A DNA stretch of 64,000 nucleotides, taken from Saccostrea cucullata (taxonomy: Eukaryota). The DNA is taken from positions 496,001-560,000 of the forward strand of contig NW_026930103.1 of the NCBI RefSeq assembly GCF_032062105.1, read 5' to 3'. Numbering within the stretch: the first letter of the stretch is position 1; the number at the start of each line of letters is the position of its first letter. Of this stretch, positions 648-40,900 are shown one piece after another. Position numbers and translations under genes: made by a program. Below the pieces are notes generated by a model that was given only the letters and a program-made list of their open reading frames with translations, did no database searches and was not told where the DNA came from.

Positions 648-1534
648 AGTCATCACTTGGATCTTATGTATTTGTTAAAAGGCTCAGGTGGGTTATACTG
701 GTGAACAGGGAATGCCTACTTCTCCTATTCACCTGATCCTACCTCAGGAATTTCTTGTTGTTTGTGTTTATACTCTCATAAAAGATTTGTTGATACATGT
801 AAATATTTTAGATCTGTCACTGTTCCCTATGTTCATCTTTTCAACATATGACTTAAAATGGCTTCAAAGGAAAAATTCACGTCCACAAACATAACTTGAC
901 TTAATGCTCCTAAAGAGATTATGCGTTACTCCCTATTATGGCTTGATTTCTCTGTAGCTACACACTTTCATATTATGTAAAAATATTTTAAAAATATATG
1001 TTCAAATTTCAATGCAATGTCATTCTTATATGGATATTAGATATAGAGTTATTTACAGTAACAATAAAACTGCAAATCATTGTAATTTTACATTTGTTGA
1101 ATTCTGTCTCTGGGGTATTGTACCAAGACAAGGTCTATAATTACCAATTTCCTGTCAACCCCTATTGGTAAATAATCATAATGGCTTTATGTCGATAAAA
1201 TTAAACTTTTAACTAGCAAACGCTAGAATATATTTCAGAACTATGAAACAAGGCTCTCATAGTTATCTATTGATTAGTACTTTATAACCATAGCTACTAT
1301 ACAGATATAGAATTTTAATGATGTAAAATGATCTTTGTTCAAATTAATTAATTGTAAGTCAAAGTAGGATAAAACAGATAGGGAAGTAGTGATAAAACCT
1401 CCGCCGCGTCATCAGTCAGTAAAATGAGTTTGAAGAGGAGAATGGAAGCAAAAATTACGATTTTTTCCGTAGTTTTTCTGTCAAGCTAAACAAAGCTTCC
1501 ACTTCACCTTTGGATTTGTCAAATTTTCAACAAG

Positions 1535-4500
1535 ATGTCAAACGGTTGTTTCTTGGAAAGTTGGACCGAGGTCTTATTATTGTGGTTTTCTCTGCGGATA
1601 GGAAACTTTGGTATTGGAACTGGATTAAGCATAAGAAATGAAAGTTATTATAAGTTAGAAGGGGATTTTTCTCATCTTTTGAATCCTTCTACATTTTTGG
1701 GATCTTTCACAGCTGTTTACGGCGGTGTTCTTTGTAGCGGCGATAAAGACTGCAAAAGCTTCTTATTTAACGGTAAAACTAAACAGGTTCAGTTGTTAAC
1801 AACCATCGAAAGTCCAGGCGCTCCACCTGGAAATGGCAATGACTGGAGGTATTTTATTAAGAGAACTGGTAAGTTTTACAATTTTTATTTCTTACTATCA
1901 AATTATTGTTTTTAATATTAAATTTAAATAATTAAAAAGGTACATGTAAATGCAAAGCCAAAATTCCAAAGTACATCATGTTCTATATTGTTACATATAT
2001 TATGAATTATTGAATAAGTTATTCTTCTAATTAATCTCTATGGAAGAAAAAAGTATTACTCATGATTGCAATTAATTTTTTTCTTTTAAAAAAAAAAATG
2101 AACATAATCAGAAGTCATTAAAAATAGTCTCCTTCTTTTTCAACCACTTAATGATAAAGAGAAACTGTATAGCACAAAGATATAATGCATTTCCAATGCA
2201 TTTCCTACTAACTGTTAAAAAAATTAGAAGAATACAATTCTAAATTTCTTTTTTGAAATTGATGACAGTAAAAATGTAAACACTTTAACAATGTACATGT
2301 AAGGTGTTCCTTGCAAGAAGGTTATACACATTTTTGAAGGGATAAAATCAAATACATTAGACATGCACACAAATTAATGATATATTTTTCTTTCACACAC
2401 ACATTGGTCAAATAATTTTGTTGGAGTTGTTTTACCAATGAAACAAAATTTTTCTTAATTGGTTTTCCTAAAATATATCTGGATTCTTTGATGTTCATGT
2501 TTTGTTTGATTTTCATAATTTGCTAGGATGTTTAAAGTTAATTAACCTTTCGTAGTTTAAAATAACTTTCTGTTTGAAAACAAATTAACTTTTAAAAAAG
2601 ATAAATCAAAAGATGGAGAACTGGAAACCTGGCCCAGTACATTCAGTTATTTACTGATTGGCTGTGTGTTTTTTTTAAATTTCCTTTTTTTTTTTTTACA
2701 TTTCCATCTCAGTGAGCTTTGGTTGCATTTCAACGTTATCGGTGTATAAAAATTACACCTTAGATGTGTTAAACAACCTATTGTTATGTGAATGTCAAAG
2801 TGAAAAAAATAACTTTCTCAAAAGTCAATTAAACATTGAAGACAAATTAACATTTTTTTTTTCAGTTGTTCATATAAAAGGTTATTTAAAAATTTTCTAC
2901 TACAGTGCCCACTGTCCAATCCGACCACTGTGCAATCCGGCACACTGGCACTTCCGACGTAAATCTTTATTCCCAAAAATATCTTTATATTACATAGAAA
3001 AAGTTATTTATTGGTTAAACACAGTATTAATTGCATTGCAGTTTCACCTGTGTTATCCGACATAATTACACGGCTGGTTAAACCCCATTGAAGCCTTTGT
3101 TTACACTGTATGACACTTTTATGAGGGGATTTCAACATTCATCTGTGTTCTTGGCACATAAAAATGTTTTAATACAGTTATGATGATGTGTTAAATTACA
3201 ATGTTATCGATAATTATAATTGTTTGCAATTTTTTCCAAGGTTAGATTTTAATTATTTAACTATTAGCTTGTGTGTGACAATTTGTTTGGTGAAATGCAT
3301 CAAAGTAACAGGACCATTGATTTGAGAATTGTCACAAACAGTATGAAATACATAACCATATTAAAGAAACAAATAAAACAAAAAAATTTTTTGCTGAATA
3401 TAACATACTATTTATCCTGGGGGAAATAAATTACGGAATAAAGTCAGGCATTTAGTCTACTTCCGTTTCCAAAATGGCGGCCATCGAAGAAGGAATGTGA
3501 ACATGTGCTGATTAAAGATGGCAATAACTATTAAAAAAACAATTTTTATAAGTCATTTTATTAAAAAAATGTTATCACAATAAATTAAAAAGTTTTTTTT
3601 TTCAGGTAAAGTGTTCATATAAAAGGTTGAAATTTAAAAATTTTCATGGACTTGAAATGTGACAGAAATAGCCAACACTGTAATTTTTAATCCGACATAA
3701 ATTTAATTTCCCATGGCACTATTTATTACAAACGACTGAATTTTTTAAAATAGACTATTTATTAGCTACGTAATAAAACCTTTCCTTAGGTAGTATTTTG
3801 GCTGCTGACTTCTTTCATCCCTATTGTTAGATTTTTATGTTTATACTGATATTGACTACGAAATGACCTGTCTATCTTATCAACACATGGTTTGACTAGT
3901 TGACAAGGGATGCTCTCTCCCCCTAACACCTGATCTCACGTCTTGGATTTCCAGGTGTCCCATGTTTTTACCCTTTTCATAGTTTTGTATTATTTATAAA
4001 TTTTATTTGGATGTATTTGATTATTTTGTTTTTGAGAAGTAAAATGGTTCACATGTATTAAGTTTTGAAATGATTGTTTTTTGACTTTCGTTTGTTTTCT
4101 ATTATGTAATAAAAAACTGAAATTTAGAATATTTTGATACGTAAGCCTTCGAGAATTCATTTAGAAAAAAATATAAACTAATATACGAAGGCATATTTTT
4201 AATTCCAGCCGACATTATGTTGATCTTCTACACATAATGAAAAATGTTAAGTTCTTAATCTCGTGAAAATGGAAAGAAAATTGGTTAATTTAGATGCAGT
4301 ATGGCGACGTCAAGAAGATTCCAATTAAAAGATGGAACTCTTTGCACTCTTAATCTTCAGTAATCAGATTTAACTTCATTTAATACAAAAATCTTTAATT
4401 TCGTTGTACTTGCTTTTTGCAAGTTGCCATATAGGTTAGGATAAAAGAATATTCATGGATGCTCATCTTCTTTTTAATATGTTTAAGCTTGATACATCAG

Positions 4501-6857
4501 CATACCTTTTAAAGTAATGAGACTATTATCAGATTATATTTTATGCCCCTTGAGATTCAGTGGGATTAACACGGCTCTTTTTTTAATAAAAACTTACCCT
4601 TGCTCACAACTTTTGATTTATTGGAGTTATGCATATTGCTGTCTTAATTCACATGTTTATTCTTTTTGACAAATCTATTTTTTGTGTACGAACATATTTG
4701 ACATCCATGATTGTTTACGTGACATTCGTTTTCTATAGCAAAAGTCACGCCTTTTAAAAGTTAAAAGACAAATTTTTGTGACATTTTTTGCCTGTAGTAT
4801 CATATATATTGATCGGTTGACCTTGACGTAATTTTGAAAACCTTTTAAATTCGCTACCCATAACTTGGAGGTTGTTCTCTTTTATTTTAACTTTAACATT
4901 GGCTTTAACTTTTAAACAACCGGTGCAATGGCTTAAATATTCAACAAGTGTATTTTTGTTACAAGATATTTCATAGGTACAAACAATTTTTGACCCCTAA
5001 GCTTGATCTTAAGTTTAAGTTGCATTTGAAAAACATTAACGTTGCATTTAACTTTCATACGGGGGCTTCAGTGTACACAAACATATCTTGTTTTAAAATG
5101 ATATTAATTATTTAGCAGGCATCCAACCTAAATTTATACCTAACACTCAAATTTACAAAATCATGTACTAAAAAAAATGGATAAAATCGATATTTAATTT
5201 TAGAGCCTCGAGTATGTGAAGCAGGATGGGAGAAATTTGGAGAGTCTTGCTATTTGTTCAGTCTCTCGTATGGCACTTGGAATAACGGAAAAGTATAATC
5301 TATTCATTCCTTATTCATCGTTCTTTATTGTTATTAGTCAAAAATATTCATGCCTCATTTTGTACAAATATAGTTCATCAATAATCAGATAATTGTTAAG
5401 AATCAATAATTAAAATTAACGAAAATTACAGTTTGAAATACCAGTGAAAAGAATATTGTTTTTCTTTGTTTTATTAAGAGTCAATTTCGAAATAATATTT
5501 TGTTTCAAACAGTTCCTTACTTAAATATTAATATTATTTTATTTTGACAGACTTTTTGTGAGGGAGAGGGAGGGTATTTAGTTGAAATAACGAGCTTGGA
5601 GGAGGATACTTTTATCAGAGATTATGTCAGAAACAGGGGATTGATGGGTAATTAAAATACATAAATCTTCTTTTTATCTAACATAGAATTTAATGGATGA
5701 AATAATTAAGGAAAAATGATATATACACTTTTACAATTTGCTATTCCGTTTATTTTAAGCACAGATTGAATTTTAGGGAAAGTTTTTTTTTCATTTGAAT
5801 TTGTATTCTGTTGTTTTAACACGCTAAAAAGAATAAAGTTTTAGTGCGTTATTTAACTCTAGGCCTTTTGACGCCTTTTAAGGTTGAGAGACACCCTTTA
5901 TCCATGTTGTTAAAATTTGGCTATTAAGAAAAGTCCAATGTTTAAGCTTATCTATTTCGATCAGCAAATTTATAAAATAAAATTGGATAATGTTGTATAT
6001 TTTTAAATATATTGGCTGACAAATGGTCAATTAAAAAAGAAATCTTCGTAAAAGATGATTTCATGATTTGATAATAAAATTGAAAAAACTGAAACACATT
6101 TTTTTTCTATAGGATATGCGATGCAAATTAAATGAAGAGGAAACTCGTAATATATTACTTATTTTAACCCTAACAATTTTAAAATTCTACAAAAATTGGT
6201 TTAAAGAACCGTGTTTAAAATATTTGCATTAAACATAGTTGAATTCAAATGATTAACATTCATACATATAATGAAAAAATTTCCAATATGTTCATGGGGT
6301 TTGAAATTAGCAAAAAAAAAAAAAAATCTCATAGGTACAAAAATAAATTTACAACTATAGCAGTTACAAAGTCTTTTGCTAAAGAATATATAGTATTAAA
6401 ATAGATTAAACCCTATAACATTTAAAATACATATACACATTACGACCCCCCCCCCCCCGAAAAAAAAACAACAAAAAACAACAAAAACAATGGTTTTAGT
6501 GTTGTTTTAAAATTGATTTTCTTTGGAATACCTACATAAATCATGTATAAATAGGAATATTCTGCTTCAACATGAATCTGAGGAAATCAAGCATACAAAA
6601 TTTATCATATTTTAACTTACATTATCGTTATAGCTTTTGAAACCCGCGACAGTTGGATCGGAGCAACGGATGTAGCAGTAGAGGGTTCCTTCATTTGGTC
6701 CGGAAGTGGACAACCCATCACGTACAATAACTATGGACCTAATAACCCGGATAATAGCGGCGGGAATCAACATTGTCTTATACTGTACCAACCTTCAGAC
6801 TACAAGTGGCACGATACACAGTGCACAAACCAAAACTCTTTTATTTGTGAAAAATAA
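1535..6857 (+). CDS. PAN/apple-like domain + C-type lectin domain protein (perlucin-like CTLD), ~247 aa, 4 exons
   Basis: Exons 1535-1868, 5204-5292, 5551-5647, 6634-6857 with GT-AG borders and consistent phase (744 nt). CTLD hallmarks: CEAGWEKFGESCYLF, FCEGEGGYLVEITSLEED, WIGATD, GSFIW, NPDN..GNQHC, WHDTQC, FICEK*. Exon 1 has a hydrophobic N-terminus and LCSGDKDCKSFLFN (PAN-like). Confidence 0.85.
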
Positions 6858-7917: not shown

Positions 7918-10900
7918 TCAGGATTTCAAGATTCTGTTCCATTGTCTTGTCATTTCTTCTTCGGCAACATTTTGAAGTTTTTGTAGCATTAACCATGCAC
8001 TATCAGCACCAAGTCGAGTATATTCATTATCTGGTTGTTTCTGGAATTCACTTTCTCCAACAACAATATATTGGCACAAGCCAACCAGAATACAGTATGG
8101 CAATAATTGTAAATCTTTATCAGAAATATGACAGAATTCTTTGTATCCATTCAGAAAATGTCCTCCAATATCGATACTATCAACATCTTCGACATCAACC
8201 ATTAAATCCCTTATGATCATGGCAACTTCAAATAAATAAGGAGAATACGCTATGTCATTGAAGTCTATTAGTCCAAACTTGGTTTCCCTCTTAGTATTAT
8301 CCTCAGCGTCATATATTGGATGTAAATTTCCATCTTTGTAATTTACAATGATATTAAGATCATGAATATCATTATGAATAATGCCTGAAAAATAAAAAAA
8401 AATATTTTAATTATTCTTCCTAGAAATATTTACAAATAATTAATAATACATTTTTTATTCAGTAAATTATGCGGTGTTCTACAATATCAACATTCACAAA
8501 CTTTGTTATCTGTGTAATAATGGACAAATATTATCCTAAATTTTCCAATTTTTTTTTTTTTGATAAACACTACAAAATATTTACCTTGTTAATTTCTTGG
8601 TAATACCTGTGGTATGTATATTTCTCTATTGAAACACAACTGAAAGGTCATATGTCAACCTGTATGTATGTGAGTGGCGTATAAATACACCGAAGAAAAA
8701 ATAGATGTTTTGTTTAATTGTTTACTAAGTACTACAGTAATTAGATTTGACATATCTTTTTACAAACAAAATAAATAATGAATTATCTTCGTAACAAAAG
8801 CAAGTTCCTAACGCAACGCTGTCCACTATGAGCAAGGCCGAGAACTCAACTTCCGTGAACAGCCTTTCTGAAGCACGTGGAGAAATCGGCACAGCCACAC
8901 TCCATCATCTAATACAGACATCGTTCCTCAGTCATTACCATCCGACTTCGTAAGCAACTCAACTTCCTACAATGTATATTGGAAAATTGGAAGACTAAAC
9001 AAAATCATGACTGAGTATGGTAACAGTCCACACAAATCGGTTTTCTGACCTACTCCCGTTTCATCAACTGCAACATTACATTCAATATGGCGGCGGAGAA
9101 ATGGCCTAGGGCCTATACACGTGTTTGTGCTTCCGACAACCTAAATCTAGGTCCCATATGTAATTTACGTTAACAAGATTGCTTTGATCATAATTTAAAA
9201 TTCTTTTGTTGTTTATTTCATAAAAGTTTATATTTGACTACACAATCATTAGAAATTTCCTGTTTTTATTGTCTACAATTTTATATAAAATTTGACGATA
9301 ATGGGGCGTGGCAAATATGAAATATAAATTTACGGAAATCAGTTTCATGCATTTCAAATCTACTATCATCAATAACATAATATTTTTTTCTTTTTTAAGA
9401 TTGTTGAAATTTCATAGTAAAAATAAAAATATATATTCACATTGCGTAGGTTTTTTATGGCAGGGACATTTACCTTTAAGGATTCATGGAGTTTTCCGGT
9501 AAAGCATAACTCTTTGATCATACGTTTACTGTCAATCTTGTGTAAACAATTCTTCAAAGGTTTTCCAGGAACACTCTGAGAACTATAGACAGTGATTCCT
9601 TGAATAGCTGATGAATATCACTATATTTTAGAAGTCAATTTTTTTTCAGAATGCAGAAAATAATATATACCTAGTAAATATTGTAACAGACCAACTTTTT
9701 TTTTCAAATTCTCAGAATTTTCGTCATCTGTTGACTCCAAAGTACTAATTAAACTATGCAGTTATATACATAAATTGAGTACATGTATATAACAAGGTAA
9801 TTGAAAATTATTTTTGTTAATTATAATATCAATGTATTTCCGCAATTGGTGTTCCAAAAATCAAATGGTGTTAAATACCAATAAAAAAAAAACATGGTAG
9901 AAATAACGAAAGAAAATCGCATTTTAAATTTACATGCTTTTTATATGCTTCAAACAAATTAATTGAAAATGTTCCATATCATGAAAAACTTCTGGGACCT
10001 GTCCTTTGTTTTCAGTAAATTGTACGATTATAATATGTTGACTGATTTAGCATTTTTTTGACATATAAATTATATACGTTGTATTGCAAAATTAAAAAAT
10101 TTGTTCCCTTACACACAAGAAAACTATTCAATAATGCTATTCAATGTAAACTCGCCATGTATACAACAGTTTATACCAGCATAATTTGGGGTAATGACAC
10201 ACTTGGCTGTGAGTTTTCAAATTTTAAAAAATATCCTTGCATTATTTTGGCTTATGTGTGATTTTTTTCACTACCATTATTCGAAAAACTTTTGTACAGA
10301 TTCTGACAAGGATATATATAATATATACAGTGTACAAGTAACACGCACATGTTTTACTTTTATATATAAAGACAACTTTTAAAACTTAAAATTTTCTTCT
10401 AATTAGTCATTATTGGTATGTTTTTCTTTTACCGAAATATCGAACAAATCAATTTAAAAATTCTTTTCATTAAGTTTTTATGAGAACAAACTAAAATACG
10501 TTTTTCACAGAATTTACACACATTTTAAAAATGTAGAAAAATTCATAATAACATCCAAATTTTTAAATCTGTGAAATTTATGTACATTGTAATTTTTTTT
10601 AGGATTTTGTCATGTTGTATTAAATTATTATTGTACAATGATTTCATAACTTTTTAAGATGAACATTATCATAAAAATCCTTAGTGCATTTTGCACTAAT
10701 CGGGTCACTACATTTATAAATTATAAAGTATTATTACTTATTATTATGTGTTATTATTTCACGTGTAAAAATCCTTATATATTGTTTTTTGTATATATTT
10801 CATATCTATATAATGTTTTGAATTTGAATTTTGAACAAACCTTTCTGCAGTTCTTTAAACAACGGCATTACATTGTCTTCAAATTTCTGAAGTATTTTCA

Positions 10901-12174
10901 GAATAATATCGTCTCTTTCTTCAGAAGAAATCTGCTGAGAATGAATAGAGTTGCTTACAATGTATATTGGAAAATTGGAAGACTAAACAAAATCATGACT
11001 GAGTATTGTAAGAGTTTAATATGTTTTTCATTTATGGTATATTTTCCATTCCAGCTCATTTCCCCCAGGAAACAACAACCTTAGATTTTTTAAATCGATG
11101 TACATACAGCAACTTTTGAAAGACTGAGAACATAAAGCAAATCTCATAAAGCCATGATTTATCTTACTTTGATGTCCTTTAACAAAGTTCGTAGGCATGT
11201 AGAATTTTCTAAAATCCAAGGGTCGTTTGGTCGAGATTCAAGAGAAATTTCCTTTGTAATTGTCTACAATTAATCATAAAATATAAGCTGATAATCCGAA
11301 CAAATATAAAATATAAATTTACGGGAAATCAGTTTCTTGAAAATTGTAACAACGTTTCTCTCAACATCAATAACATAATCATCTTTATTTCTATTAAAAT
11401 TTCACAGTAAATTATGTCGGGACCATGAAATATTTACATAGCGTAGATTTTTTATTCTGTCATATCCACCTTTAAAGATTTATGGAGTTTTCCGGTAAAG
11501 CCTCCCAACTCTTTGATCATACGTTTACTGTCAATCTTATGTAAACAATTCTTCAAAGGTTTTCCAGGAATGAATGAGAACAGTCGAATTACAAACTGAC
11601 CATCATCTATGAGGAAAAATGCCTTTTTTGTTTCATAAAACTAGCAAAATATATGTTATGTACATCATATACATGTAATCATGGGATAATATATGCATAA
11701 TATACATTCTGCTTCTAATGTTTATTTTAATTTAAAAAATATTTTTGTATTTTAATTGGACCTAAATATTTAATACTATCCCTTTTTTGGATGAACATGT
11801 TCTTTACGTATGCATCACCTTACTTCGTATTACATTTAAATTTATTACATTACCAGATTACCTGTTTCATGAAACCATTTATCGTCAGGAAAGGATAGGC
11901 ATAGCGTGCAGATAAACCCATCATCCTTCAGATGTTCCATAACCTTCCTCTCCTTTTCTGCTTTCTGTTGGCAAAAATTACGGCGATGAGAAAGTTTAAC
12001 CATTGCCTGCATTTCTTCATATAAACGTGACCCACAGGAGTTCTCGTACTTAACAAAAAAATTGCTGTCCTCAAAGGAATCCAGACGATCAATATTGTGA
12101 ACTTTCCATCCACATTTCACTTGTAATATGCGTTTTAATTCTTGATTCGATAATTCTGGTCGACGTTTATCCAT
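7918..12174 (-). CDS. Hydroxylysine kinase-like protein (HYKK/AGPHD1 family; aminoglycoside phosphotransferase/choline kinase fold), ~368 aa, 5 exons
   Basis: Exons 12174-11862, 11606-11470, 11263-11168, 10934-10841 (NAGNAG acceptor), 8384-7918; 1107 nt, open frame. Motifs: LDSFEDSNFFV, IRLFSFIPGKPL, GKLHKSL, catalytic GIIHNDIHDLNIIV, metal-binding GLIDFND, YLFEVAM, PDNEY. Confidence 0.85.
8965..9575 (-). pseudogene. Decayed partial internal duplicate of the kinase gene (part of exon 2, intron 2, start of exon 3, part of intron 3) inside intron 4
   Basis: 9470-9570 is near-identical to 11470-11570 (PGKPLKNCLHKIDSKRMIKEL-CFTGKLHESLK); 9250-9460 resembles 11243-11460; 8968-9018 matches 10957-11007. 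Confidence 0.75.
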
Positions 12175-13059
12175 TTTATATTATTTTTTTGTAAACTTTA
12201 GATAAAAAGTAATCTGGAACCATAACCTTTTCGTCCCTTCTTGATATTAAGCTACGGCGTCGCATACAAGAAATAAAGGTAAAGTAAGGTACTGAGAGGA
12301 AACGATACCCCCGGAAAAGTTCATGTTTTGTTCTGAAAGACCCGATATAAGGGTTAGATCAAAACGTAAAATAGGATGTGCACAATGGCATTATGTTATA
12401 AAGAATCTGTGAAAGTATCATTAAATTTTATTCAGTGATATAGGACTAGTTGCAGGAAAGACATTTTTTTTAAAGAAATCGTTTTAAAAAAACTAAAGTT
12501 CTTTTATAATAGTTCTATAAAATCCTTATTCTTCCTGAGAAATGAAAATTAAAGACGATCATGAGAATAAACGATACACTGGAAATGAATTTTTTTTATT
12601 GTTAATCTAATCTCAAAGCTTTTCGCAATGACTGTTTATTCCATAAACACTTTATTATTGAAAATGTACAGAATTAAGCAAAAACTTAAAATAAATCGAC
12701 AATGGAATCTAGCGAAAATGATGGGATTACACAATGAAGATAAGGAAAATCTATACCTCTTTTATTTTTTTTGATATGATTTGATGGCACAATTTAATCA
12801 GATTGAAGTTGATATATATTCTTTCAATTTCAGATAACTGAGACGATATGGAAGACGTTTAAGGATTCTTTTACTCGACCCCTTAAACAAATGGACCAGG
12901 GGTTGATGGAAAAATCATTTTTTTTTTTGTTTAATGAAACTTCAGGAGACATAATGATGCTTGTATATATGTAAAAATTAAAATCTATATTTTATATACG
13001 GGGTCGTGACCCCCGTGTATTGATTGGGTACACAGATTTGATATGAAAACAAATGTCTA

Positions 13060-25943: not shown

Positions 25944-28900
25944 ATGAAAAAAATAAAAGAGCTACTATGTATTATCGCAATTTATATTTATCAAGTCAGA
26001 AGCGTGGACGAGAGAGGTAAATAAAATCTATCTAATAAGTCATTATTTAACATAAAGAATAATAGGTTTTTTATTCTTACATAGCATTTAATTGCATATT
26101 TTTAAAAATAAAAAGTGCACACATAGCATCTTTGTTATTGCTTTTGTACTGTAAACTCATGATTTATCACTGAATAATTAGTAAAGTTTAAATGATTAGG
26201 TTCTTTAACATTCGACCTAAGTTTTACATCATCAGTAAATTTAATTTATATTAATTATTCAAGAAATTGTTAAGTTGAAATCAATATGAAGAAGAAATAT
26301 TAATTTAAATTTTAAAACATTTTTACAGGATGCAAAGGCTTAATGGAGTTAGTGGTCATTATAGACGGGTCGGACAGTATCAATAAACCCGATTATGATT
26401 CCTTAAAATCCTCAATGGCCACCTTAGTGCAAAAATTAGACATTCAAGAAACAGAAATCCGCATATCGTTCATTGTCTTCAGTTCAGACATTGCATTGGA
26501 GACAGACATGATGGGGGACAAACAACAGGCGATAAACACAGCCGCCACATTACCCCACCCCAGGGATGGGACCAAAACATGGTTGGCACTGGAGGCAATG
26601 GTGTAAGTTCCCCATGGTTTTGAATCCTTCATTTTTTTTATGGTTAATCACTTAAGAAGGTTATGTAAGGAACATACTGAAAACAATTAAGTAATTCTAA
26701 AATTATGTATAGGATATATTGAGCTCTTAAAAGACGGAAGTGGTAGACAAAAAACGATCAAAAATAAATAAAATAAATATCATACCTACCGGTATCTTAT
26801 TAAAAATTTCAATCAAAGACCAGTTTTCATTTGGTGTTAATAAACCATTTCTTATATATTAATGAAAATAAAAGAATAGAAAACTGAGGGGAAATTTAAA
26901 AAAATTAAGCTTCAGTTAAACTGAATTTGACTGCGGAATGTTCCGTCCATCTGATCAATATAAGGGGCTTACGTTGGTATTGACTGTTCAACAGGAGATG
27001 CTTGCTCCTTCTAGGCAACTGATCCCACCTCTGTATTTTCAAGGAATCCGTGTTTTGTGCACTCTTTACATATTTGTATTGTTTATAGATTATTTTTTTT
27101 TAGATCGATCGGCATTCGTTGTCTTCAACTGTTACATCAAGTAAACTTTAATTCGTGTTTTTTCTTTCCTTTCCAGAGGAGTTATAGATAGAGGTCGCAC
27201 CCCAGGCCGCAAAGATGTGCCTGTAGTTGGCGTGGTGCTTACTGACGGAATATCAAAGGATGAAGCAAAAACCAGGCAAGCTGCCAAAGCTTTAAAAGAC
27301 ATGGGAGTGACAATGTACGCTATTGGTGTAACAGACATCAAGAATAAGAAAGAACTGAACGATATAGCCTCAGGGAGTGAAAAAGTCATCACTTTCCAAT
27401 CTTTTTCCGAGTTGGCAGAGAAATTGGAATCTCTTGTAAAACTTGTCTGTCCTAGTAAGTGTTTGAGAATAAATCTGTTTTTCTTTCCTTGATAACTAAA
27501 TTATGTCAAACTATTAATGGAGACAACTGCTGAATCTGCTGTGGTCAATTAGTCTTTTTCTATAATATCGAATAAAAATTTGAATCTTCAACTGGTATTC
27601 GCTTGCTTCATCACTTGATTTAATTTAACCTAATCTAATGAAGTCTGATGATATCAGTTTTTCTTTTTTTCGATTTACCTTAATACATACCTTTGTTTTG
27701 CAGAATGTCCTCCAAATCCCCTTCTTGCACACTCAGACACCCAACAAGGAGACTACATTGTGGACACAGTGTTGGAGTATCATTGTATGCCGGACTATGT
27801 ACCAGTGGGAAATAACACCATCTTGTGTCAAAGGGATCTTACATGGACAAAACTTGATTATGCCTGCAAATGTAAATTACATTCTTTGTCATAAAAGTAA
27901 ATCTCAGCATTCGACCACCGTCAATCAAAAAGATAAGTGAATCAAAATTAAAGATACTAAAAAATGAAACCTTATTATCTTGTAAAAATAATAGACTTGA
28001 ATTTGTTAATATTAACATATTTTACTGACAATATAAAAAAACCAAATTGGACACAAAAACAGGAAATCCCCTCCCTCTTCTCAAGTTTTTTTAGTATGGG
28101 TTCTGTAACTTTAAAATGACATGCTTATCCTTCCAGCTGACTGTGGCGCTCCTCCTGTTTTGGATCATACAATCCTGGATATACCAGGCAGACTTGAAGG
28201 ATCAAAGACAAAGTATCAGTGTACCAGAGGATCTGTTCTAGAAGGAACACCAGAAACTGTCTGTCAGGAAAACGGACAGTGGTCCAGACCCACCTTCAAA
28301 TGTCGAGGTAAGCCAACTTTTATTTCAATAAAAAGAACACGAAAAATTGTATGGAACAATTAAAAATGTAAGCCAAAAATGGAAAAGCAGTTGGCGTAAA
28401 AATACAACTTCCATTTTGACTGATTTGTTGGTCTTCTGAAAAAGAATTCAAAAATGTAATCAAGCAACAAATAATTGGGATGTGATGACATATCTATTCC
28501 AGCCGACTGTGGATTGCCAAACATCATAAAACATGCTATACTGAGTGACGGAGGTCAACTAGAGGGTGACAAAAGAACATACACATGTGATGCAACAACC
28601 ACTGTACAAGAAGGAAACCCCACCATAGTGTGTCAGAATAATGGAGAATGGTCCGTAACAGACCTTTACTGTAGACGTAAGTATTCTATTGCCATATTAA
28701 TATAGATTGTAGATGGATGTCTGATTGCTTTAAAGATTTTTATCTTGCACAGGGTACATGTACTGCTGGAGTGTTGTTAACATTGTCACTTTGTAAACGA
28801 TAAGTATTTTACACTATTAGCAGAATATTTGAAGACATCTGTCACCCTGCCTTTGTTTAGGCTGTAATGGAATAAAGTTATGTGCATTGTGATGAAATAT

Positions 28901-31900
28901 TTTCATTATTGGCATTTTATAGCTAATTGTGGTTATCCACCCAAAATTGAACGAGCTACGATATCCGCTGGTGGATTATTAGAAGGTGTCACACGTACAT
29001 ACACCTGTAACGTAGGTACAGTCACAGAAGGCAAAACAATGATAACATGTGGTCCCGACGGAAAATGGTCTGCCACCAACCTTTACTGCAGGCGTTAGTA
29101 TCAATTAATTTTTTACAAGTATTCTGTTATAAGTTAACAGATTACAGTTCATCTTGGAGTATCAAAGAAGAAAACAAGTGTTGAAAAAAAAACAATGCAA
29201 AAATTGTTCAATTCAAAGTATTTTAAAAATATCAAGTTTGATGATAAATATTTTTTATTTTTCAAACAGCTGATTGTGGACCACCACCAAATATAGAACG
29301 TGCGATAATTAAAGAACACAACGTGGTTATAGAAGGCGTCAGGCTTCCCGGTACACTGGAAGGAGTCACGAGGTACTACCAATGTCAACCAAATACTGTG
29401 GCCGAAGGACTGACCAGTACTACCTGTCAGCTGAACGGACAATGGACAGTTACCAATCTTTACTGTAGACGTAAGTAAAAGTACCAGTAGTTGTTGTAAC
29501 CTACTTTGCAAACAATCAAAAATATTGACGTTTACATTTCAAATATATTTGATCAAAAAATGTTTTATAAATATATTGATTCCACAAATTGAAAGTCAAA
29601 ATGATTTTGCTGCTTTATTTCTATAGAAAACTTCTATCTTCTATCTATAACTTTCTATAGAAAATCTAAATTGGACAATATTTAATAAAGATATGTTTAA
29701 TCAAAAAACTTAAACAATTGAAGAGATTATACTGGTATTCTAATTATTTATATATCTTTCTTTTATAAAGCTAATTGTGGCAATCCCCCAACCATTGAGA
29801 GAAGTACCGTGACTTTTGAGGGAACACTGCAGGGTCATAGCGCCACCTATACTTGCGTACAAAATACTCACACAGAGGGATCCACAAATATCGTCTGCCA
29901 AATTGATGGAACCTGGTCATCCACTAATCTTTTCTGCAGACGTAAGTCTACTTTTAAATCTACTGAAACAAAAGTATTTATTCTGTATTAACTAACCATC
30001 GGAATCTTGAGCCTTTTAGCGTTAAAACAAGGTTCGTGTTTTCACTACATGTAAATATCATGCATTTTCAGCCGATTGTGGGCCACCACCGGTAATCGAA
30101 CGATCCATAATTTCTCCTGGAGACAATAAGCAGGGAACAACAAGAACGTATAGTTGTCTTAGCAGTACTGTTATGGAAGGAAATCCAGCAATTACTTGTG
30201 GAATGAATGGAATGTGGTCACAAACAAACCTATACTGTCGCCGTGAGTATTCTTAATTCACATTTCCAGATTTCAATGCAAGTTTTAAATGCCTGTTAAT
30301 AGTAAATGCATTTGGGTTGAATATATCTATAGCTTGTTGATTGTTAAGAAAGTGTGAAAAATCATTTTCTTTGTGTATATTTAGCTGACTGTGGACCACC
30401 ACCAATGGTTGAGCGTGCCGTAATCTTAGATTACAATAAGGTCATAGAAGGTGTACGGCTACCTGGAACTCTAGAGGGAGTAACTAGATATTACGAATGT
30501 CAAGCAAATACCGTTGCTGAGGGACTGACCAGTACAACTTGTCAAGTGGATGGAACATGGTCTTCTACAGGATTATATTGTCGACGTATGTAATAAAGTT
30601 TATAATTATTTCTTCTTCTAAGGTCAAAACTTACAAAAATATACAACAAGAAGTCTTTTAAGGATTTCTTTCGATGGATCCAGCAGATAATTAAATAAAT
30701 CAAAGATTTAACACCATTTGAATTACTGTTTTCTAACATGTAATTTTAATAAGTATCAATTTCCATCTATAGCTAATTGTGGTAAACCACCAGTTATTGA
30801 AAGAAGTACCGTGACTTACGTCGAAACATTGGAAGGACAAACAGCTACCTACACGTGTGCACAGAACACAAGAACAGAGGGCTCCACAACGATAACGTGT
30901 CAAAACGACGGAACCTGGTCATCTACTTCTCTTTATTGCAGACGTAAGTGAGCTTATAGGATCAGTAAAATGGATATTTTGTGCTATCTTCATTTTCATT
31001 TTTGAACATGGCAAAATATGACCAAGATGATTGCTTTTCAACGTCTTATTTTTTACATTTTCTAGCCAATTGTGGACCACCACCAATGATACTTAGAGCC
31101 AAGATTTCCAAAGGCGATACATATGAGGGAACAGTAAGAACATACACATGTATGAGAAACACTGTCACGGAGGGGACACCAACCATTACTTGTGGCATTG
31201 ATGGACAGTGGTCAAAGACAAACTTGTACTGCAGACGTAAGTATAAGACAATTTATCTCAGGTTGTAGGTTTTTTGAGTAAATAAAGGGAACAAGGATGT
31301 AGTTCTATCTCTACGTGCATGTATCTGCTGTGTCTGGAGTTGTGTGAGTCTTTGTTGATTTGGGGAGTCGTCTGATTGGAGCGTCTTCTAATTTTAAGGA
31401 AAAAGACGAAACTCATCAGACTCATCCTCGGACAGCTCGTCCTCAGAGGAAGACGAAGAATCCACAACTCCAAGGCGCAGGCGTAGACGGAAGTGTTGTC
31501 GTAGCTTGCTCAATAAATGTTGTCGTAGAAAGTGTCTGAGGTCGTCTAGGTGCAGGTCGAGGCTTAGGAGTACAGTACAGCCGATCAGAAATGCTTACAT
31601 TCCAGAGGAGGAAGAGATGGACTTCAAGATTGATACACAGTATCAAATCAATGATGCAATTGATCTTAAAGAAAGCGATGATGACGACATATGATGACGA
31701 CATATAATATGGCAATACAGAACTGTTGTTTTTTTGGACACTGAAATCAACTATTCTGTGTGCCACAAAACTCTCTAACCTTTCTTTGTTGTATTTAAAA
31801 ATCTAAAGTATTCTTTTGTTTTGTTGGGCACATGTCCTTGTTAATTGAAACCTCAGAAGGTATTGAAAACAAGTATATGCCTTTCAGTATTCATGTAATT

Positions 31901-34900
31901 AAGTTTGAATTCTTCTTCGATGTGCTCAGGTCTTGTTCATTAGTATTCACTAAGTATTGCACATGTTACGCTATTTACGTTTTCTTATCTGTTATCTTTT
32001 ACTATTGTTTTGTTGAAATGGCACCATTTAGTATTCAAATATGGAGAGTCACTAGTATAGTATTAAGTTTTACTGTTTTATTTTGTTGTTTCTTCTTTGT
32101 TATTTAATCAGAATAAATTGCAAATGAATCTCCTGACTTATTTTTCATCGATAAAATAAAATATCCGATCTTCCAAGCAAAATACAAATATCTTCATTAT
32201 TAGTTATCTTAAAAAGCATAAAACTCCCTTTGAACAAATGATTTTACTGGCGGACTGCTGTTGTAGCGGACTGTGGTGAACCTATGAAGATAGAACGAGC
32301 AACCATTAACCAAGGGTCAACACTCGAGGGAGATGTCCGGACATACACATGTAACCAGCAAACTGTCACAGAGGGGGAAACTCGGATAACGTGCTTAGAA
32401 TCTGGATTCTGGTCAAATACAAGTCTTTATTGTCGACGTAAGTGCTTTCACTATATTTCCATTACCTATATTTATTGTCATTTCTATTATCCATTCGCAA
32501 ACAAAATTTGTAAGGCAAATGAAAAGAATCGGAAACAATGAAACGCTCAATATCTGTCTCTCGAAGTATGCATGATATTGGAGATACTGGAGATTCCAGA
32601 ATGCAGTTTGATTCAGATCCTCAGGTTTATAAAATTAGCAGTTAAGTAATCAACAATACTCATAAAAGTATCTCTGAATCAACAAAATTATGTAAATTTG
32701 TCCACAGTATTTCGTTAAAGTTAAAGATTAAAGTTAATCATATTATATAGGGAAAATTGCCAAATCTCCAATATTTCTGCAGAAAAAAGCGTATTGGAAC
32801 ATCTGCAATGTATTTTCTAATTGCAAATTGATCAACAAATATATTTTAGGTTTAAAAACGATAGTTATCCAGGCATTCAGAGAAATTGTCATGATTTTTG
32901 TATTTATTTGATATTTTTTGTTTTCTATTTCCGTCATATATTCTATAGTAAATAGTGTAAAAGGCTTTTGCTATCATTGCAATCAAGACACCACAAATCA
33001 CTTCGTATTTCATATCATGCAAATAAGCATTGGTATCTAAGCCTGGATTCAAGAAAATCTTATTTCTCTAAAACTGTATTAATTTTTTTCCTTTTATAGG
33101 GTACAGATATCAACTTTTATAAGTCCTTTTCTTAGATTTCCAAAACCCTTGTATCTTATAAAGATGAATAAAATGAAAATTTGTTGCATGAAAAAATTAA
33201 ATTTCAAGCTTCATTTTGATGCATTTCAAATTAATTATCAATTTTTGGAGTTATCCTTCCTGGCTGAGGATCGGATATCCTTAAACTGACAAACATACTA
33301 CGCACCCATAAAAGATCTTCAGTTAATATGATTTTTTTTCTTTGTCTCAGCGGATTGTGGAGAACCTCCATTGATAGACAGAGCCAGTTTGGATGTAGGA
33401 AAGACTGTAGAGGGCGTCATCAGAACGTACACCTGTCAGGTAAAAACTGTGACGGAGGGGTCCAGAGAGATCAGATGTGAAATCACCGGTCTCTGGTCAA
33501 CGAGCAACTTGTATTGTCGACGTAAGTACTTTTTCAGCAATTTTGTTTCATCATTGACTTATCAATATTTTATGAGCATGTTAGTCGTTTAAACAAGTAA
33601 AAAAAAAAACATAAAATTTTTAATATATCAACTATCAACTTTCTTTTCAGCGGATTGCGGACCACCTCCAGTGATTGAAAGATCAACTGTCTCCGTTGGA
33701 AACAATTTACAGGGAACTACTCGAACATACGCTTGTGATCAGAACACAGTAACGGAGGGGGAGACTTCAACAGAATGTCAGATAGATGGAACCTGGTCCC
33801 AGATCAATCTCTACTGCAGACGTAAGTCAACTACATCTAAACCCTTATATTAAAAATATGAACTCAAAATAAATATACAAAGATAACAAACAGTATTCAA
33901 GCTCAAAAGTCCATTAGATAATATAAAATTGATAGAAAGCGAACACGGACCTCCAAAATATCAAAGGTGGAATAAGATACAATTGAGGAGTTAGCACCTC
34001 CTGTCCTTTATATTTTCTAATAGTTTTAATCAATTTCACAGCGTTAGTATTTACTTCCTGGTTGTGATGACTACGCAGGCAAAAATACTTGATCTTCAGT
34101 TTATATGATTTTCCTACTTTTAAGCGGATTGTGGAGAGCCTCCTTTGATAGACAGAGCCAGTGTTGATGTAGGCAAGACAGTAGAGGGCGTCATCAGAAC
34201 GTACACCTGTCAGGGTAAAACTGTGACGGAGGGGTCCAGGAAGATCAGATGTGAAATCACCGGTCTCTGGTCAACTAGCAGTCTGTATTGTCGACGTATG
34301 TACTTCGCACTTTCTCAGTAATATTTATTTCATTATTAACAATTTTTCTTGGCCTGTGAATCGTTTAAACATGTTACGAACGAATTAAAGCTTACACAAT
34401 TCAAAATCAAGCAAGTTTCGGGAAGATTTTCAGTTACCAAAAGAAGAAACAAAACAAAATTTTAAAAATATCAACTTTCTTTTCAGCGGATTGCGGACCA
34501 CCTCCAGTGATCAAGAGATCAACAATTTCCGTTGGAAACAATTTACAAGGAACAATCCGAAGGTACACTTGTGATCAGAACACAGTAACGGAGGGGGAGA
34601 CTTCAACAGAATGTCAGATTGATGGAACCTGGTCCCAGACAAATCTCTACTGCAGACGTAAGTCAACTACATCTAAACCTTTTTTATGGAAAAGAAAATT
34701 TATTCTCCAAATTCTTAAATGAATTTGACGAATTGTTTTTTTTTTAATTTAGCCGATTGTGGTGATCCTTATCCAATTCCACGCGCCATCATAAGTGCTG
34801 GTTCCAATTTGGAAGGGTCTAGCAGAATCTACACCTGCAATCAAAACACACGCACAGAGGGAGAAACTACAATAAGATGTGAAGAAACCGGATTGTGGTC

Positions 34901-37900
34901 CCTGACCAACCTGTACTGCAGACGTAAGCTACACCTAAAAATATATTTTCACCTAAATCCTGCTAATCTTGCAAAAATATTTTTCCTATATTGTTAATAA
35001 AGTAACTACGTAAATAATTATTAACAGCCAACTGTGGTGAACCTCAACCAATTCTACGTGCCACCATTAGTGCAGGAGGGACCCACGAGGGCGACAAGAG
35101 GATGTATACTTGTAACCAACAAACAGTAACGGAGGGAAATACTGAAATCCATTGTCAGCCTAACGGACAATGGTCCACCACCAATCTCTACTGCAGACGT
35201 GAGTTGATTCATAATTATACGAACTATTTGTCACAACATTCTGCAAAATCCAGCAGAAATTAATTTAATGTTTCTGAAATTTTTGATGAATGAAACCAGT
35301 TTAAAATGAGAATTTCATTGCTGCAATTTTTGAAGTGTCAAGTTTGTCAAGGACAGTCAAATATTTCACTTAATTTGGGTTAATGTATATATTTAGAAAT
35401 TTTTGCAAATTGTAACAAGGCCATTTCTTACAAAAAATGTATAAGAAAGACTTCAAAAAAGGAAAAAATCTGAGAAATAAAACAGCCTTATACTTAACTT
35501 CTAAAGTAATAGGTCACAGAAGATAATGAATGCGACTTTGAAATTTAACAACTATTAAAATTTTTCCTTTAGTAATTATAATTATTATATTTAATAGAAA
35601 TTCATGCCAAATACATTTAGGTGTTTTTTTTAAATATGTCTGCAGAAAGTCAGTTATATTCTCTTTTCTTTGCACTCTTCAGCCGACTGCTTAGAACCAC
35701 CCAAGATTGACCGAGCGATTATTAGCGTGGGTAGAACAGTAGAAGGAACCACTCGCACATACACTTGTAATCCAGGGAGCCACACAGAGGGCACCACCAC
35801 TATTATATGTCAACAAAGTGGAGCTTGGTCAGCGACTAACCTCTACTGCAGACGTAAGTGATTCATATCTTTTGCAACTCTTAACCTTTAGTAGAACTCT
35901 GAATACATGTAACAGCGAGTCCTTTTTGGTTTAACCAGTTTTACGTTTATAAAAAGAATAATTTGTCAGAAAAAATATGCAAAACTCAAACTAGACAAAT
36001 CGCTGTGTTTCAAAGGATCAATTTAAAGATACTGCTATAAAAAATCTGTACCATTGTTTAATGCTACTTTTTAATCAGCTGACTGTGGCAATCCACCCAT
36101 TGTGGCAAGATCGAGCATTTCACTTGGCAACAACTTAGAAGGTACGACACGTTACTACACATGCGCAGAAAATACTGTGGCAGAAGGGCTTAAAGAGACA
36201 ACTTGTCAGATTGATGGAACCTGGACGGTTACAAACTTATACTGCAGACGTAAGTCTTCCACCTCGATCAGTAATTACCGTATATAAACACCTTTTTACA
36301 AGAAAATAAATAACTTCAGATTATAACTGGGAAATTGAATTTGTGGAATCACCTCATTTGAGAACTGAACTTATTTTATGTTATATTATATAATACATTC
36401 TTACATTAAAAATGAGCTCGAGAATCACTTAAGTGAGAGAGATAACTTTAAATCTTTTAAAAACCTTATGAAATTCAGTTTCGGATTAAAGTTCTTGAAA
36501 AAAATTCAAGTTTGAAGTCTATAATAAAAAAAATTAATATGTTTATTTGAATACATTATCAGTATAATATATAAATTTTGTTTTAAAAATTAGCAAACTG
36601 TGGAATGCCAATGAACATCCCTAGATCAACTATATCTCCTGGAAACACACTCGAAGGAACCGTCAGAACTTATACTTGCGACGAAAATACCGTAACAGAG
36701 GGACCCACAGAAACTGTCTGTCAGTTAAATGGACAGTGGTCACTAACAGCAATGGATTTATACTGTAGACGTAAGTACAAGCAAATTATGCATTCATAAT
36801 AATGTCTGGTGCAAACAATACCTCTAAGAAGACCCACTACCGCCAATTAGTTGTTTAATCAATTAAAAAACATTATTTTTTACTCATCTATTAGCTGACT
36901 GTGGAGAACCTATGCCAATCAATCGCGCGACAATAGCGCCAGGAAGCAATCTAGAAGGTTCCACCCGTTTCTACAGCTGCGCATCAAATACCGTAGCAGA
37001 AGGACAGCTTAACATTATTTGTCAGAAAGACGGAATGTGGTCAATGACTAACTTATATTGCAGACGTAAGGCTGAAATTGAAAATTTATTTCAAATATTT
37101 TATAAAGGCAAAAAGTCTTCTTAAGTAAACATCTGGTTAACATCTGTCCTTCACCTTTTCAAGCCAATTGCGGTATCCCTGACACTATACCTCGCGGTGG
37201 TCTTAAATATGAATCAACCTTGGAGGGTGCAGTAGCTACTTATTCCTGTGCCTCAAACACCGTACTGGAGGGTGGTTCTACAATTGTTTGCCAGGGAGAT
37301 GGACGCTGGTCAAATATAACTACATACTGTCGGCGTTAGTATTTTGTGGTTAATCTTTTAAATAAAAAAAAAAATTGTACTTCATTTAAAAGTAATCAAA
37401 CATTTTGAATACATGTAAATATATTATAAATGTGAAGTATAATAAATAATACATTTCAAATCTTTTTAAAAATTTGTTAAACTAATATTATGCCTAATAA
37501 TTTCAAATAATAATACATGCTCTTTAATGAAATTCTTAAAAGGTAATACGTTGTTAACGATGTTAATTATTTATTTTTCATTCATCAAGATTTTTATTTG
37601 AATTTAATAAATGTGGACATAATATATTTTTAAAGCAAATTGTGGAGAACCTCCAATCATACCTCGCTCTACTGTGTCTGTTGGGGGCACACTGGAAGAA
37701 GATACTAGGACATACACGTGTGACGTTGGAACAGTCGCAGAATCCGGACCCTCACAGATTGTGTGTCAGAAAAACGGGCTCTGGTCATCCACTGACTTGT
37801 ACTGCAGGCGTATGTAAATAAAATTTAAATCTAAATGAAAAGATGAATCGGTTTATATGATAAACAAAGTAAGGATGACTTTTTTAAAACTAAAGATTTA

Positions 37901-40900
37901 AGAATTTCTTTGTAAAAACAGCCGACTGTGGTGCTCCTCCAGTTATTCCCAGAGCCACAATATCACCAGGTAGTAACCTGGAAGAGAGTATAAGAGTGTA
38001 CACATGTGACGCCAACACCTTGACACAGGGTATCATCAACATTAGGTGCGATCGTAACGGACAATGGTCAACTACCGACCTATACTGCAGACGTAAGTGA
38101 ATGTCTCTTGTCTTCTTATCTCCACGAAATATTTAAAAAAATCATGAGAAAAAAATTCAAAAAGCTTACATTGACAAAACAGTATGAAAGTTCCAAAATT
38201 TTACTTTTAGCAATCTGTGGAAGACCGCCGTTGATAGAGCGGGCCTCCTTTTATGCCAATTCTACGGCGGAAGGAGGCGTAGCTTTGTATCAGTGTAGTA
38301 ACTGGACCGTCACGGAGGGATCAACATCCATCGTTTGTCAAAAGAATGGTCTTTGGTCAGAGACCGATTTGTACTGCAGACGTAAGAAGCACAATTAATA
38401 CTCATATTAATAAGTGGACATAATCAAATAATAAAAGCACATTAAAACATAACCATATATTTTTGTACTGGTCATGCTAATAGCTGCATGTATATGTTCC
38501 TTGGAATTTTGTTATAATATCTTCAAACTTTACAATTCGTAGAAACAATATTCTGTAATTATTATTAAATTTCGTATCTTCTTACAGCAAATTGTGGTCC
38601 ACCTCCCAATATTCCTAGATCCACCGTACAACCAGGGGATACAACAGAGGGTACCTCTCGATTTTATGTTTGCGATAAATCAACAAAAACTGAGGGAATT
38701 ACCGAAACCAAATGTCAAAAAGACGGAACTTGGTCCAAACTAGACATGTACTGTAGACGTAAGTGAACAGTTTAATTTTACATTAACTTTGGACCCAAGT
38801 ATTAATGACAAAATATGATTAAAAAGGAATTAAAGCCGAATAGCTTTTATTCAATTTCCTCAACGAGTTATCTTTCTTTTTTGAATTTAAAGATTTTAAT
38901 TATCAAATTTTCTTCGGTACTAAAGCTGACTGTGGCGCTCCTGTTTCTGTGGAGAACTCTAAAACAATTTACCCAACCTCTACGGTGGAGGGCACAAGAC
39001 TAACACTGGAGTGTGTAGCAGGGACGGTAGCAGAAGGAAACAATGAGGTGTTCTGTCAAAAAGACGGAACCTGGACAAAACCAACGCTATACTGTAGACG
39101 TAAGTCCAGAGTTAATTTACATATATCTGTACATACATGTAGATTACCAGACCAAAATCCCTCCAAAACAATTACTTTCAGAATTAATTTTTATAGACAC
39201 TATAACCGGAGAAAAGGTTTGAAATGGATTTTTTTCAGATTGAATCAAAGTATTATTTAATGATGTTTGCAAATATATTGTTATAATTCTTACAGCTGAT
39301 TGCAAAAAGCCATTCATGATACCAAGAGCAACAGCGCAGTACACTAGCACATTAGAGCAAGCTGTTGTCGTTTATGTTTGTAATCAAGGTACAGTAAGCG
39401 AGGGAGAGAATACCAGCGTTTGCAAACATGATGGGACATGGAGTGACGTAAATCTTTACTGCAGACGTAAGCAATTACTTGACAACAATAAAAATGCGTA
39501 TGCATACATAATATTAATTTTCTATAAATAGTATTTTGCGAGGCATTGATAGTTAAGTAAGACAGTTGATGTGTTAAAAATTTAAACATTTTTTCCCTAA
39601 TTTTTAGCTGAATGTGGACCTCCTCCAAAAATACAACGATCCACCATTACCGCCGGAAATTGGACAGAGGGATCCACCTTGACATACTGGTGTGATGAGG
39701 GAACAGTGACGGAGGGAAATCCATCAATCACGTGTCAGAGTAATGGGCTGTGGTCCGATACCAATTTGTACTGCAGACGTAAGATTATAAAACAATTTTT
39801 CTAATTATATCTCTCAATTTCGTTGATTCTCTCTCCCCCCCCCCTCCCAAAGAAAGGGTATAGGGTATTTACTTTTAATCGACAATAAATTGATGATGTT
39901 GATGATGATGATGATGCAATATTTTTTGCGTTCTTCAGCTGATTGTGGTGTTCCAAAACTCATTCATCGTGCGATCCTATCAGAAGGTGACACTTTAGAG
40001 GGGATAACTCGTACGTATACATGTACAGCTAATACTGTCGCTGAGGGCAAAACGACGATTGTGTGCCAGAATAATGGACAATGGTCTTCAACAAACTTAT
40101 ATTGCAGACGTAAGTGAAATCCCATAAGAACACATAGAAAATATACTAAAAGAATAATCATATAGCTTTGATATTTCCTAAATAACAATAAGATGTACTT
40201 AACTGATGATTTTAGCAAACTGTGGTGCACCACCTATGGTGGAGAGAGCCGTTGTGGACATGGATGGGTCGGCACTTGAGGGTGCCATAAGATATTACGC
40301 GTGTATCGGAGGATCTGTGCTGGAGGGCGAAAACAGCATCACTTGTGGGCAAGATGGACGCTGGTCTGATGTCAGAGTTTACTGCAGACGTAAGCTACAT
40401 ATATGAAAAGACAAAAAAAAAATTACATTGAATTTTGTTTGCTTATTTAACATAAATTTAATTCAAGTCAGATTCTTTATCCGAAGATGACACTGTATCA
40501 CAATACAATAATATTAAAGTTTATCAAGTTGACATTTTTTTGGGGAAAAAATATTCATGTACCAGTATGTTAATAAACAATTGAACAATATTTATAATAC
40601 AGCTAATTGCAACCAACCTCCACCGGTACCCCGAGCCACTGTCGATACCAGTACTGGTACTTTGGAAGGCAGCATTGCTGTTTACACATGTGACCGTAAA
40701 ACGGTTCAAGAAGGCTTTGGGGAAACTGTTTGTCAAAAGGATGGTACTTGGTCAAAAGTGGATCTTTATTGCAGACGTGAGTTCATGTCTAATTCAAGCG
40801 ACATTCTTAAATGGTTTTGGAATGATTTAGATTCTTATAGTATTTTATAGGAATCTGAATATGAAAACTTAATAAAAGGGATTGACAATAGGATTTCTTT

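Follow-up and report, generated by a model that had tools for sequence, protein, structure and literature searches.

A conserved, likely alternative last exon in an oyster PifCCP gene encodes a charged, cysteine-rich tail with a predicted cleavage site

The window, the whole stretch of DNA analysed here, comprises 64,000 nucleotides (nt) of Saccostrea cucullata (assembly GCF_032062105.1, contig NW_026930103.1, positions 496,001 to 560,000 of the forward strand), numbered from its first letter. Its plus strand carries a gene for a secreted protein with a signal peptide, a VWA domain, 39 CCP/Sushi exons, chitin-binding (CB) domains and an LG domain (Table 1). The order VWA-CCP-CB-LG is given as the layout of PifCCP, a subfamily of the Pif/BMSP shell-matrix proteins (PMC11291548, section 12). 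Judged by its domain layout, the host gene is a PifCCP in its long form. Within the intron after the tenth CCP exon (CCP10) lies a further, terminal exon for a short tail of charged and cysteine-rich blocks; RNA of related oysters shows it spliced in frame to CCP10.

Table 1 Features of the PifCCP gene and its alternative last exon in the window.
Feature	Positions	Strand	Evidence
First coding exon, predicted signal peptide	25944..26016	+	Phase-1 GT donor; 73% identity to Pacific-oyster model N-terminus, E 5e-9
VWA domain, two exons (26329-26602, 27177-27454)	26329..27454	+	Pfam VWA E 1e-11, 3e-13; GT/AG; open frame
CCP/Sushi exons 1-10, common to both isoforms	27704..31236	+	Pfam Sushi on CCP10 E 8e-10
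RRKRR polybasic site across splice joint, predicted proprotein-convertase site	31233..31409	+	RRKR in 5 tail-bearing homologues
Short-isoform intron, 162 nt, containing an upstream open-frame 'remnant'	31237..31398	+	Joint 31236->31399 in 4/4 runs
Alternative last exon; coding sequence 31399-31694, then ~430 nt of 3' untranslated region (UTR); approximate end	31399..32125	+	RNA depth; X1 contig end; single copy
Ser/Asp/Glu block, 19 aa, net -7, NSS sequon, 2 S-x-E, predicted phosphorylation	31410..31466	+	Nearly invariant in homologues
Arg/Cys block, 36 aa, net +17, six Cys	31467..31574	+	Six Cys aligned in P0009, P0001
Acidic C-terminal block, 39 aa, net -10, plus stop	31575..31694	+	Weaker conservation; read indels preserve frame or stop
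AATAAA, likely short-isoform poly(A) signal	32112..32117	+	Sequence; coverage stops just downstream
Long-isoform CCP exons 11-39	32267..43041	+	All GT/AG, open; orthologous CCPs in Pacific-oyster models
Long-isoform chitin-binding (CBM_14, CBM_14-like) and LG exons; approximate end	43427..45210	+	Pfam CBM_14 E 4e-8, 2e-5; 63-82% identity to P0020 C-terminus

The exon is real. Four of 24 listed RNA runs, representing at most four samples from three studies, were compared with positions 30300-33600, and the joint 31236->31399 (GT..AG, 162 nt skipped) is present in all four. X19 and X20 are oligo-dT runs, with ~45-47% of each run covered; X1 and X5 are contigs, assigned to RNA by guess though they do skip introns. 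The joint is crossed by one raw read in X19, by three with three different starts in X20, and by contigs of depth 13.4 in X1 (CCP8-9-10-tail) and 347.5 in X5 (CCP9-10-tail). Upstream, the joint 30585->30773 is found in two of the runs and 30943->31066 in all of them. Most records are 90-95% alike to the window, and exons differ by ~5-6%; the RNA evidence therefore stems from a relative and not from the sequenced individual. Coverage extends from 31399 to ~32120 and drops to 0-0.05 in the bin 32187-32297, with one X1 contig stopping at 32123; a poly(A) tail or 3'-end pile-up is displayed in none of the four runs. Two indels occur in the tail among the reads, an insertion of 3 nt behind 31613 and a 13-nt deletion that removes one tandem unit at 31678, in the stop region. 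By inspection, the latter retains the same last residues and stop, so that both indels preserve frame or stop. The equal depth of CCP10 and tail was considered as a sign that the short form dominates; this was rejected, since both lie on one contig and oligo-dT priming under-samples the long form here.

The intron that holds the exon (31237-32266) measures 1030 nt, more than any other of the 38 CCP introns; the second-longest, of 913 nt, contains a repeat, and the others range from 95 to 484 nt. From the phase-1 donor of CCP10, the acceptor AG at 31397-31398 opens an in-frame tail that ends at a stop codon at 31692-31694. The coding part has a G+C content of 45%, against 30% in the UTR. The acceptor is weak, with a position weight matrix (PWM) score of 4.3 that exceeds just 3 of 23 CCP acceptors and ranks seventh among the 66 AGs of the intron. 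The length of the open reading frame (ORF) by itself proves little, because a chance ORF of 98 codons also sits in the UTR; with an acceptor this weak and an equally long ORF arising by chance, sequence alone would not decide whether the exon is real. The original prediction, made from sequence alone, had proposed an in-phase terminal exon in an unusually long intron after CCP10, and the joint in the four runs bears it out, as it does the proposed acceptor, frame, stop and AATAAA at 32112; its warning about the acceptor was also justified. The proposed 3' end near 32130 agrees with the end of coverage and of the X1 contig, and lacks a displayed poly(A) tail or pile-up.

Searches of the 1.17-Gb genome, by DNA (which skips simple repeats) and by protein, match the intron segment and the tail once apiece, to themselves. 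The upstream 'remnant' at 31237-31398 likewise has no second genomic copy. Among 4980 candidate proteins, the tail matches one, in the P0001 cluster; five of the 15 cluster members are intron-free CCP-tail ORFs (Logan proteins), and the other ten are 63-aa single-exon pieces. In their CCP part, three of the five tail-bearing proteins are identical to Pacific-oyster models at 195-198 of 198 positions and two at 180-182 of 198, the latter two probably, by this divergence, from a second species. The tail is 58% identical to those of P0009 (52/89) and P0001 (51/87), scores that none of 1000 shuffles reaches, with the CCPs at ~75%. The RRKR, the NSS sequon, the S-x-E, the Ser/Glu block and all six cysteines are conserved, and the RRKR with the adjoining Ser/Glu block is retained exactly in all five homologues. 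A motif scan of the retrieved proteins finds the full tail in these five Logan proteins only; the best 150 matches listed for P0009 among representative sequences, six of them inspected directly, are mostly generic CCP arrays, and the tail has no match in Pfam or ESM Atlas. An AlphaFold model on the five-sequence alignment was discarded (mean predicted local distance difference test score 31, with even the CCPs unfolded). Because the segment is single-copy and the same junction and tail occur in Pacific-oyster-type transcripts, sequence comparison places the exon before the split from the Pacific oyster and identifies it as neither a fresh insertion nor a transposable element (TE) or retro-fragment. 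The genome search for a parent gene or multicopy element and the search in related oysters, both proposed with the prediction, thus favour an old exon, and its caveat of an inserted fragment undergoing exonisation falls. The 'remnant' is spliced out in the runs. Separately, the CCP11-CCP12 intron holds a multicopy interspersed repeat of ~670 bp (32613-33285), matched by 40 of 40 scored candidates at 90-95% apart from itself; it is deeply covered in the RNA runs and contrasts with the single-copy tail segment.

The long form combines an N-terminal VWA, many CCPs between VWA and chitin-binding domains, and CBM_14. Its LG exon has no Pfam match alone and is 79% identical to the corresponding region of P0020, where Laminin_G_3 scores E 2e-4, under the curated cut-off. 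The nearest named proteins are Pacific-oyster models, auto-named SVEP1-like, at ~73-75% identity; identity of the window gene is 73% with the Pacific-oyster model P0024 (617 aa compared) and 42% with the Pinctada protein P0016. A search for VWA-exon homologues returned none at E 1e-10 among 96 candidates. In none of five Pacific-oyster-type models is the tail exon present: the four long ones (P0020-P0023) all place the orthologue of CCP11 immediately behind that of CCP10, and P0024 (618 aa) ends exactly where CCP10 does. Between the poly(A) signal and CCP11 there is no in-frame start or signal exon (150 nt before CCP11 scanned), and CCP11 is spliced onward to CCP12 (joint 32437->33351, in run X1 only). 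CCP11 therefore most simply receives the upstream exons of the same gene, and the locus is very probably one gene with alternative last exons. Polyadenylation after 32112 would yield the short form, and skipping to CCP11 a form of ~2,800 aa with chitin-binding and LG domains. The short isoform, which stops at 31694 after 896 aa, lacks the CBM_14 and LG domains and is best read as the product of the alternative last exon. An isoform without the chitin anchor had been predicted, and the in-frame terminal exon found in RNA, conserved and skipped by the long models, agrees with it.

Several features of the array accompany this arrangement. The CCP11 acceptor (32245-32275) looks locally duplicated, with a short motif present twice, and is weak (PWM 3.5); it could favour the short form in splicing, or else the skipping of CCP11, an exon with little or no coverage in three of the four runs. 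CCP5-7 and CCP8-10 (29270-31236 region) form a block duplication of 68-72% identity that resembles a triplet duplication. It is not in the Pacific-oyster models, so the tail comes after the seventh CCP there. CCP12-13 and CCP14-15 (33351-34657) form another, of 90-91% identity. The models P0020-P0023 vary in their middle CCP sets (CCP20-29 region), which suggests further cassette splicing or assembly differences.

The short form has a calculated mass of 98.8 kDa, with RRKR at residue 798 and a part following RRKRR of 94 aa (11.1 kDa). The tail contains 19% Arg, 16% Ser, 11% Asp, 9% Glu, 6% Cys and 6% Lys; 45% of its residues are charged, and they fall into three charge blocks. The RRKRR is assembled by splicing, one Arg coming from CCP10, one from the joint codon and KRR from the new exon. 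The furin consensus is R-X-K/R-R and the FAM20C consensus is S-x-E. Because RRKR and S-x-E fit these, convertase release of a phosphorylated polyampholyte is predicted. A furin/proprotein-convertase-type enzyme would cut after RRKR(R) and free the 11-kDa peptide, a step we judge slightly better than even. Phosphorylation in the secretory pathway would then turn the Ser/Glu block into a binder of Ca2+ or amorphous carbonate, and the Arg/Cys block would bind acidic matrix polymers and cross-link through its six cysteines; this pair of roles is offered tentatively, as somewhat less probable than the cut itself. Depending on the splice choice, the VWA-CCP rod would either be anchored to chitin or, in its unanchored form, deliver the polyampholyte. 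Taken whole, a conserved and likely alternative last exon of a PifCCP gene, giving a predicted secreted VWA-10xCCP protein whose charged, Cys-rich tail is predicted to be cleavable, is the account we favour with moderate confidence.

A number of observations weigh against this account. The long joint 31236->32267 is seen in none of the four runs, CCP11 has a depth of 0 in the bin 32298-32408 for X19, X20 and X5 (5.2 in X1), and the evidence for the long Pacific-oyster proteins consists of gene models. Raw junction reads number only four and come from a relative 5-6% diverged. Seven tail substitutions are listed (a partial set, as X1 has 13 there), of which four are replacements, all conservative, and three are silent. 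In RRKR, the end of the CCP exon and the joint codon supply the first two Arg at almost no cost, the last disulfide Cys of the CCP adjoins the site, and an N-glycan sequon follows it; for these reasons cleavage is not assured. Proteomic, localisation or binding data on the tail were not found in the open-access literature searched.

The strongest competitor accepts the alternative end and holds that the tail is never released, or that any trimming is inconsequential. The tail would then cross-link or oligomerise the protein, its Arg/Cys block forming disulfides and binding polyanions, and would play no direct part in mineral formation. In favour, the six Cys and the Arg-rich block are the most distinctive conserved part, the disulfide Cys and the sequon crowd the basic site, and the tail is much shorter than Pif80 and lacks LG halves; the exact retention of RRKR and the Ser/Glu block in five of five homologues is, on the contrary, what one would expect if the former is a processing site and the latter a phospho-acid block, and we consider an attached tail unlikely, though it is the best placed of the alternatives. 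Less probable again is a pair of adjacent genes, in which the exon always ends a VWA-10xCCP protein, CCP11-LG is separate and the long models are predictor fusions. It would account for the short joint alone being seen in RNA, for P0024 stopping at CCP10, for the listed long Logan proteins (584-867 aa) containing the 3' part only and for the weak CCP11 acceptor. It sits poorly with a CCP11 that lacks a start of its own yet is spliced to CCP12, and with the continuous VWA-CCP-CB-LG order of four of four long models, of Pinctada P0016 and of published PifCCPs; contig breaks are, moreover, expected in a repeat array. That the exon is a TE-borne or retroposed fragment under exonisation with a functionless peptide is very improbable: the weak acceptor, low complexity and lack of a Pfam or Atlas match suit it, but the segment is single-copy with no parent found, the same joint and a 58% identical tail occur in oysters whose CCPs are 25% different, and the indels preserve frame or stop.

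Other genes surround the PifCCP gene in the window. A head-to-head neighbour on the minus strand (21800-23740) has a predicted signal peptide and CBM_14, CBM-like and LG-like exons with 29-55% identity to the PifCCP C-terminus; no VWA is seen in it, and it is possibly a divergently transcribed paralogue. The product of an ORF at 50777-51262 (+) combines a Cys-rich motif and a Thr repeat with a C-terminus that is basic; it has no Pfam match and is possibly a small secreted protein. A C-type lectin exon (6582-6854, Pfam E 2e-11) lies in the stretch 1490-6857 (+), and the gene at 7918-12180 (-) is phosphotransferase-like (APH E 0.002, under the cut-off). The ORF pieces at 46773-47177 (-) and 16256-16613 (+) resemble the ends of retroelement reverse transcriptases; the former has no Pfam match. 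Outside the window, at G000:C270:47459-57416 (-), a nearly intron-free multi-CCP gene has open frames of 1604 and 698 aa and ~30% identity to the window CCPs.

A shell role of the window gene would rest, by analogy, on the PifCCP members described as shell proteins in Pinctada fucata and Elliptio (PMC11291548). Among published Pacific-oyster PifCCPs, CGI_10016016 is listed as upregulated after epinephrine-induced metamorphosis (10.1101/2020.03.25.004614). Shell-proteome searches against models such as those examined could not find the tail, because these lack the exon. The tail provides a conserved 11-kDa candidate for oyster mineral binding or matrix cross-linking, and the exon a splice choice by which a PifCCP protein loses its chitin anchor. 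A bolder and rather doubtful extension is that true oysters re-invented the Pif logic by splicing, pairing a chitin-anchored scaffold with a convertase-released phosphorylated peptide that controls carbonate precursors in the calcitic shell; if true, the tail would have arisen independently as an analogue of Pif80, in a design convergent with Pif97/Pif80.

The closest known proteins are those of the PifCCP subfamily (Pfu_30448, EcoUNP3, CGI_10016016, CGI_10014502; PMC11291548), which resemble the long form in their VWA, many CCPs, CBM_14 and LG. Most of them carry CCPs, and not low-complexity regions, between VWA and CB, and their function is called unknown in the same paper. Unlike the window gene, they are described there without a short isoform or charged tail, and the main text of that paper makes no mention of splicing. 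Elsewhere in the open-access literature searched, tail motifs included and most matches appearing as listings, no report of the short isoform or tail was found. The PifG subfamily of Lottia, with VWA and CCP and without CB or LG, has the same domain content as the short isoform; it differs in consisting of separate gastropod genes that, according to PMC11291548, were not found in shell proteomes and that have no tail reported.

A further likeness is found in P0097 (XP_056016991.1), a RefSeq model probably from Ostrea edulis. Its three CCPs are nearest to window CCP4 (73%) and CCP10 (66%) and are followed by RRKK and a Ser/Glu run, but it has a signal peptide and TSP1 instead of VWA, a Thr linker, and a tail of 25 aa without the Cys block. 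The tail likeness is weak (29 of 1000 shuffles reach the score), and an RRK is also expected from intron read-through. The sequence hints at reuse of the CCP10-tail module, and read-through could explain it instead; P0097 is a possible chimeric paralogue, and its use as proof of the tail in a third genus was dropped to a weak lead.

Pif and BMSP are cleaved and release carbonate-binding C-terminal parts (PMC11291548), Pif177 giving Pif97 and Pif80 in Pinctada fucata and the other BMSP120 and BMSP100. As in the short form of the window gene, the N-terminal part bears the VWA; a basic site, RMKR in that system and RRKR in the oyster tail, is shared at the level of the motif, and acidic and basic residues abound in the C-terminal part of both. 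In Pif80, partial LG domains accompany an Asp/Lys/Arg region, and the whole lies behind the chitin-binding domains (PMC11291548); Pif80 binds calcium carbonate and undergoes Ca2+-induced coacervation (PMC5540247). The oyster tail, in contrast, stands before the CB domains and has no LG halves, and against the LG-bearing P0016 and P0020 it has no similarity (best E 6.0 and 1.3). It is a 94-aa sequence of acid, Arg-Cys and acid blocks, far shorter than Pif80; its charged residues (45%, with Lys at 6%) partly recall the Asp/Lys/Arg region there. Cleavage and binding have been shown for Pif and are predicted for the tail. Pif97 retains the chitin anchor, and the oyster tail replaces CB and LG by splicing. 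The likeness to Pif80 drawn in the original prediction is loose: the basic site motif holds, but the tail has neither the LG similarity nor the position of Pif80, and the prediction had left the Arg/Cys block unweighed. Without LG halves, sited before the chitin-binding domains and built as a short block sequence, the tail is not a Pif80 and is at most a convergent design, a distinction drawn from the published description of Pif80. In conclusion, the gene belongs to a known shell-protein family, and what is new is a conserved last exon that none of the examined gene models contains.

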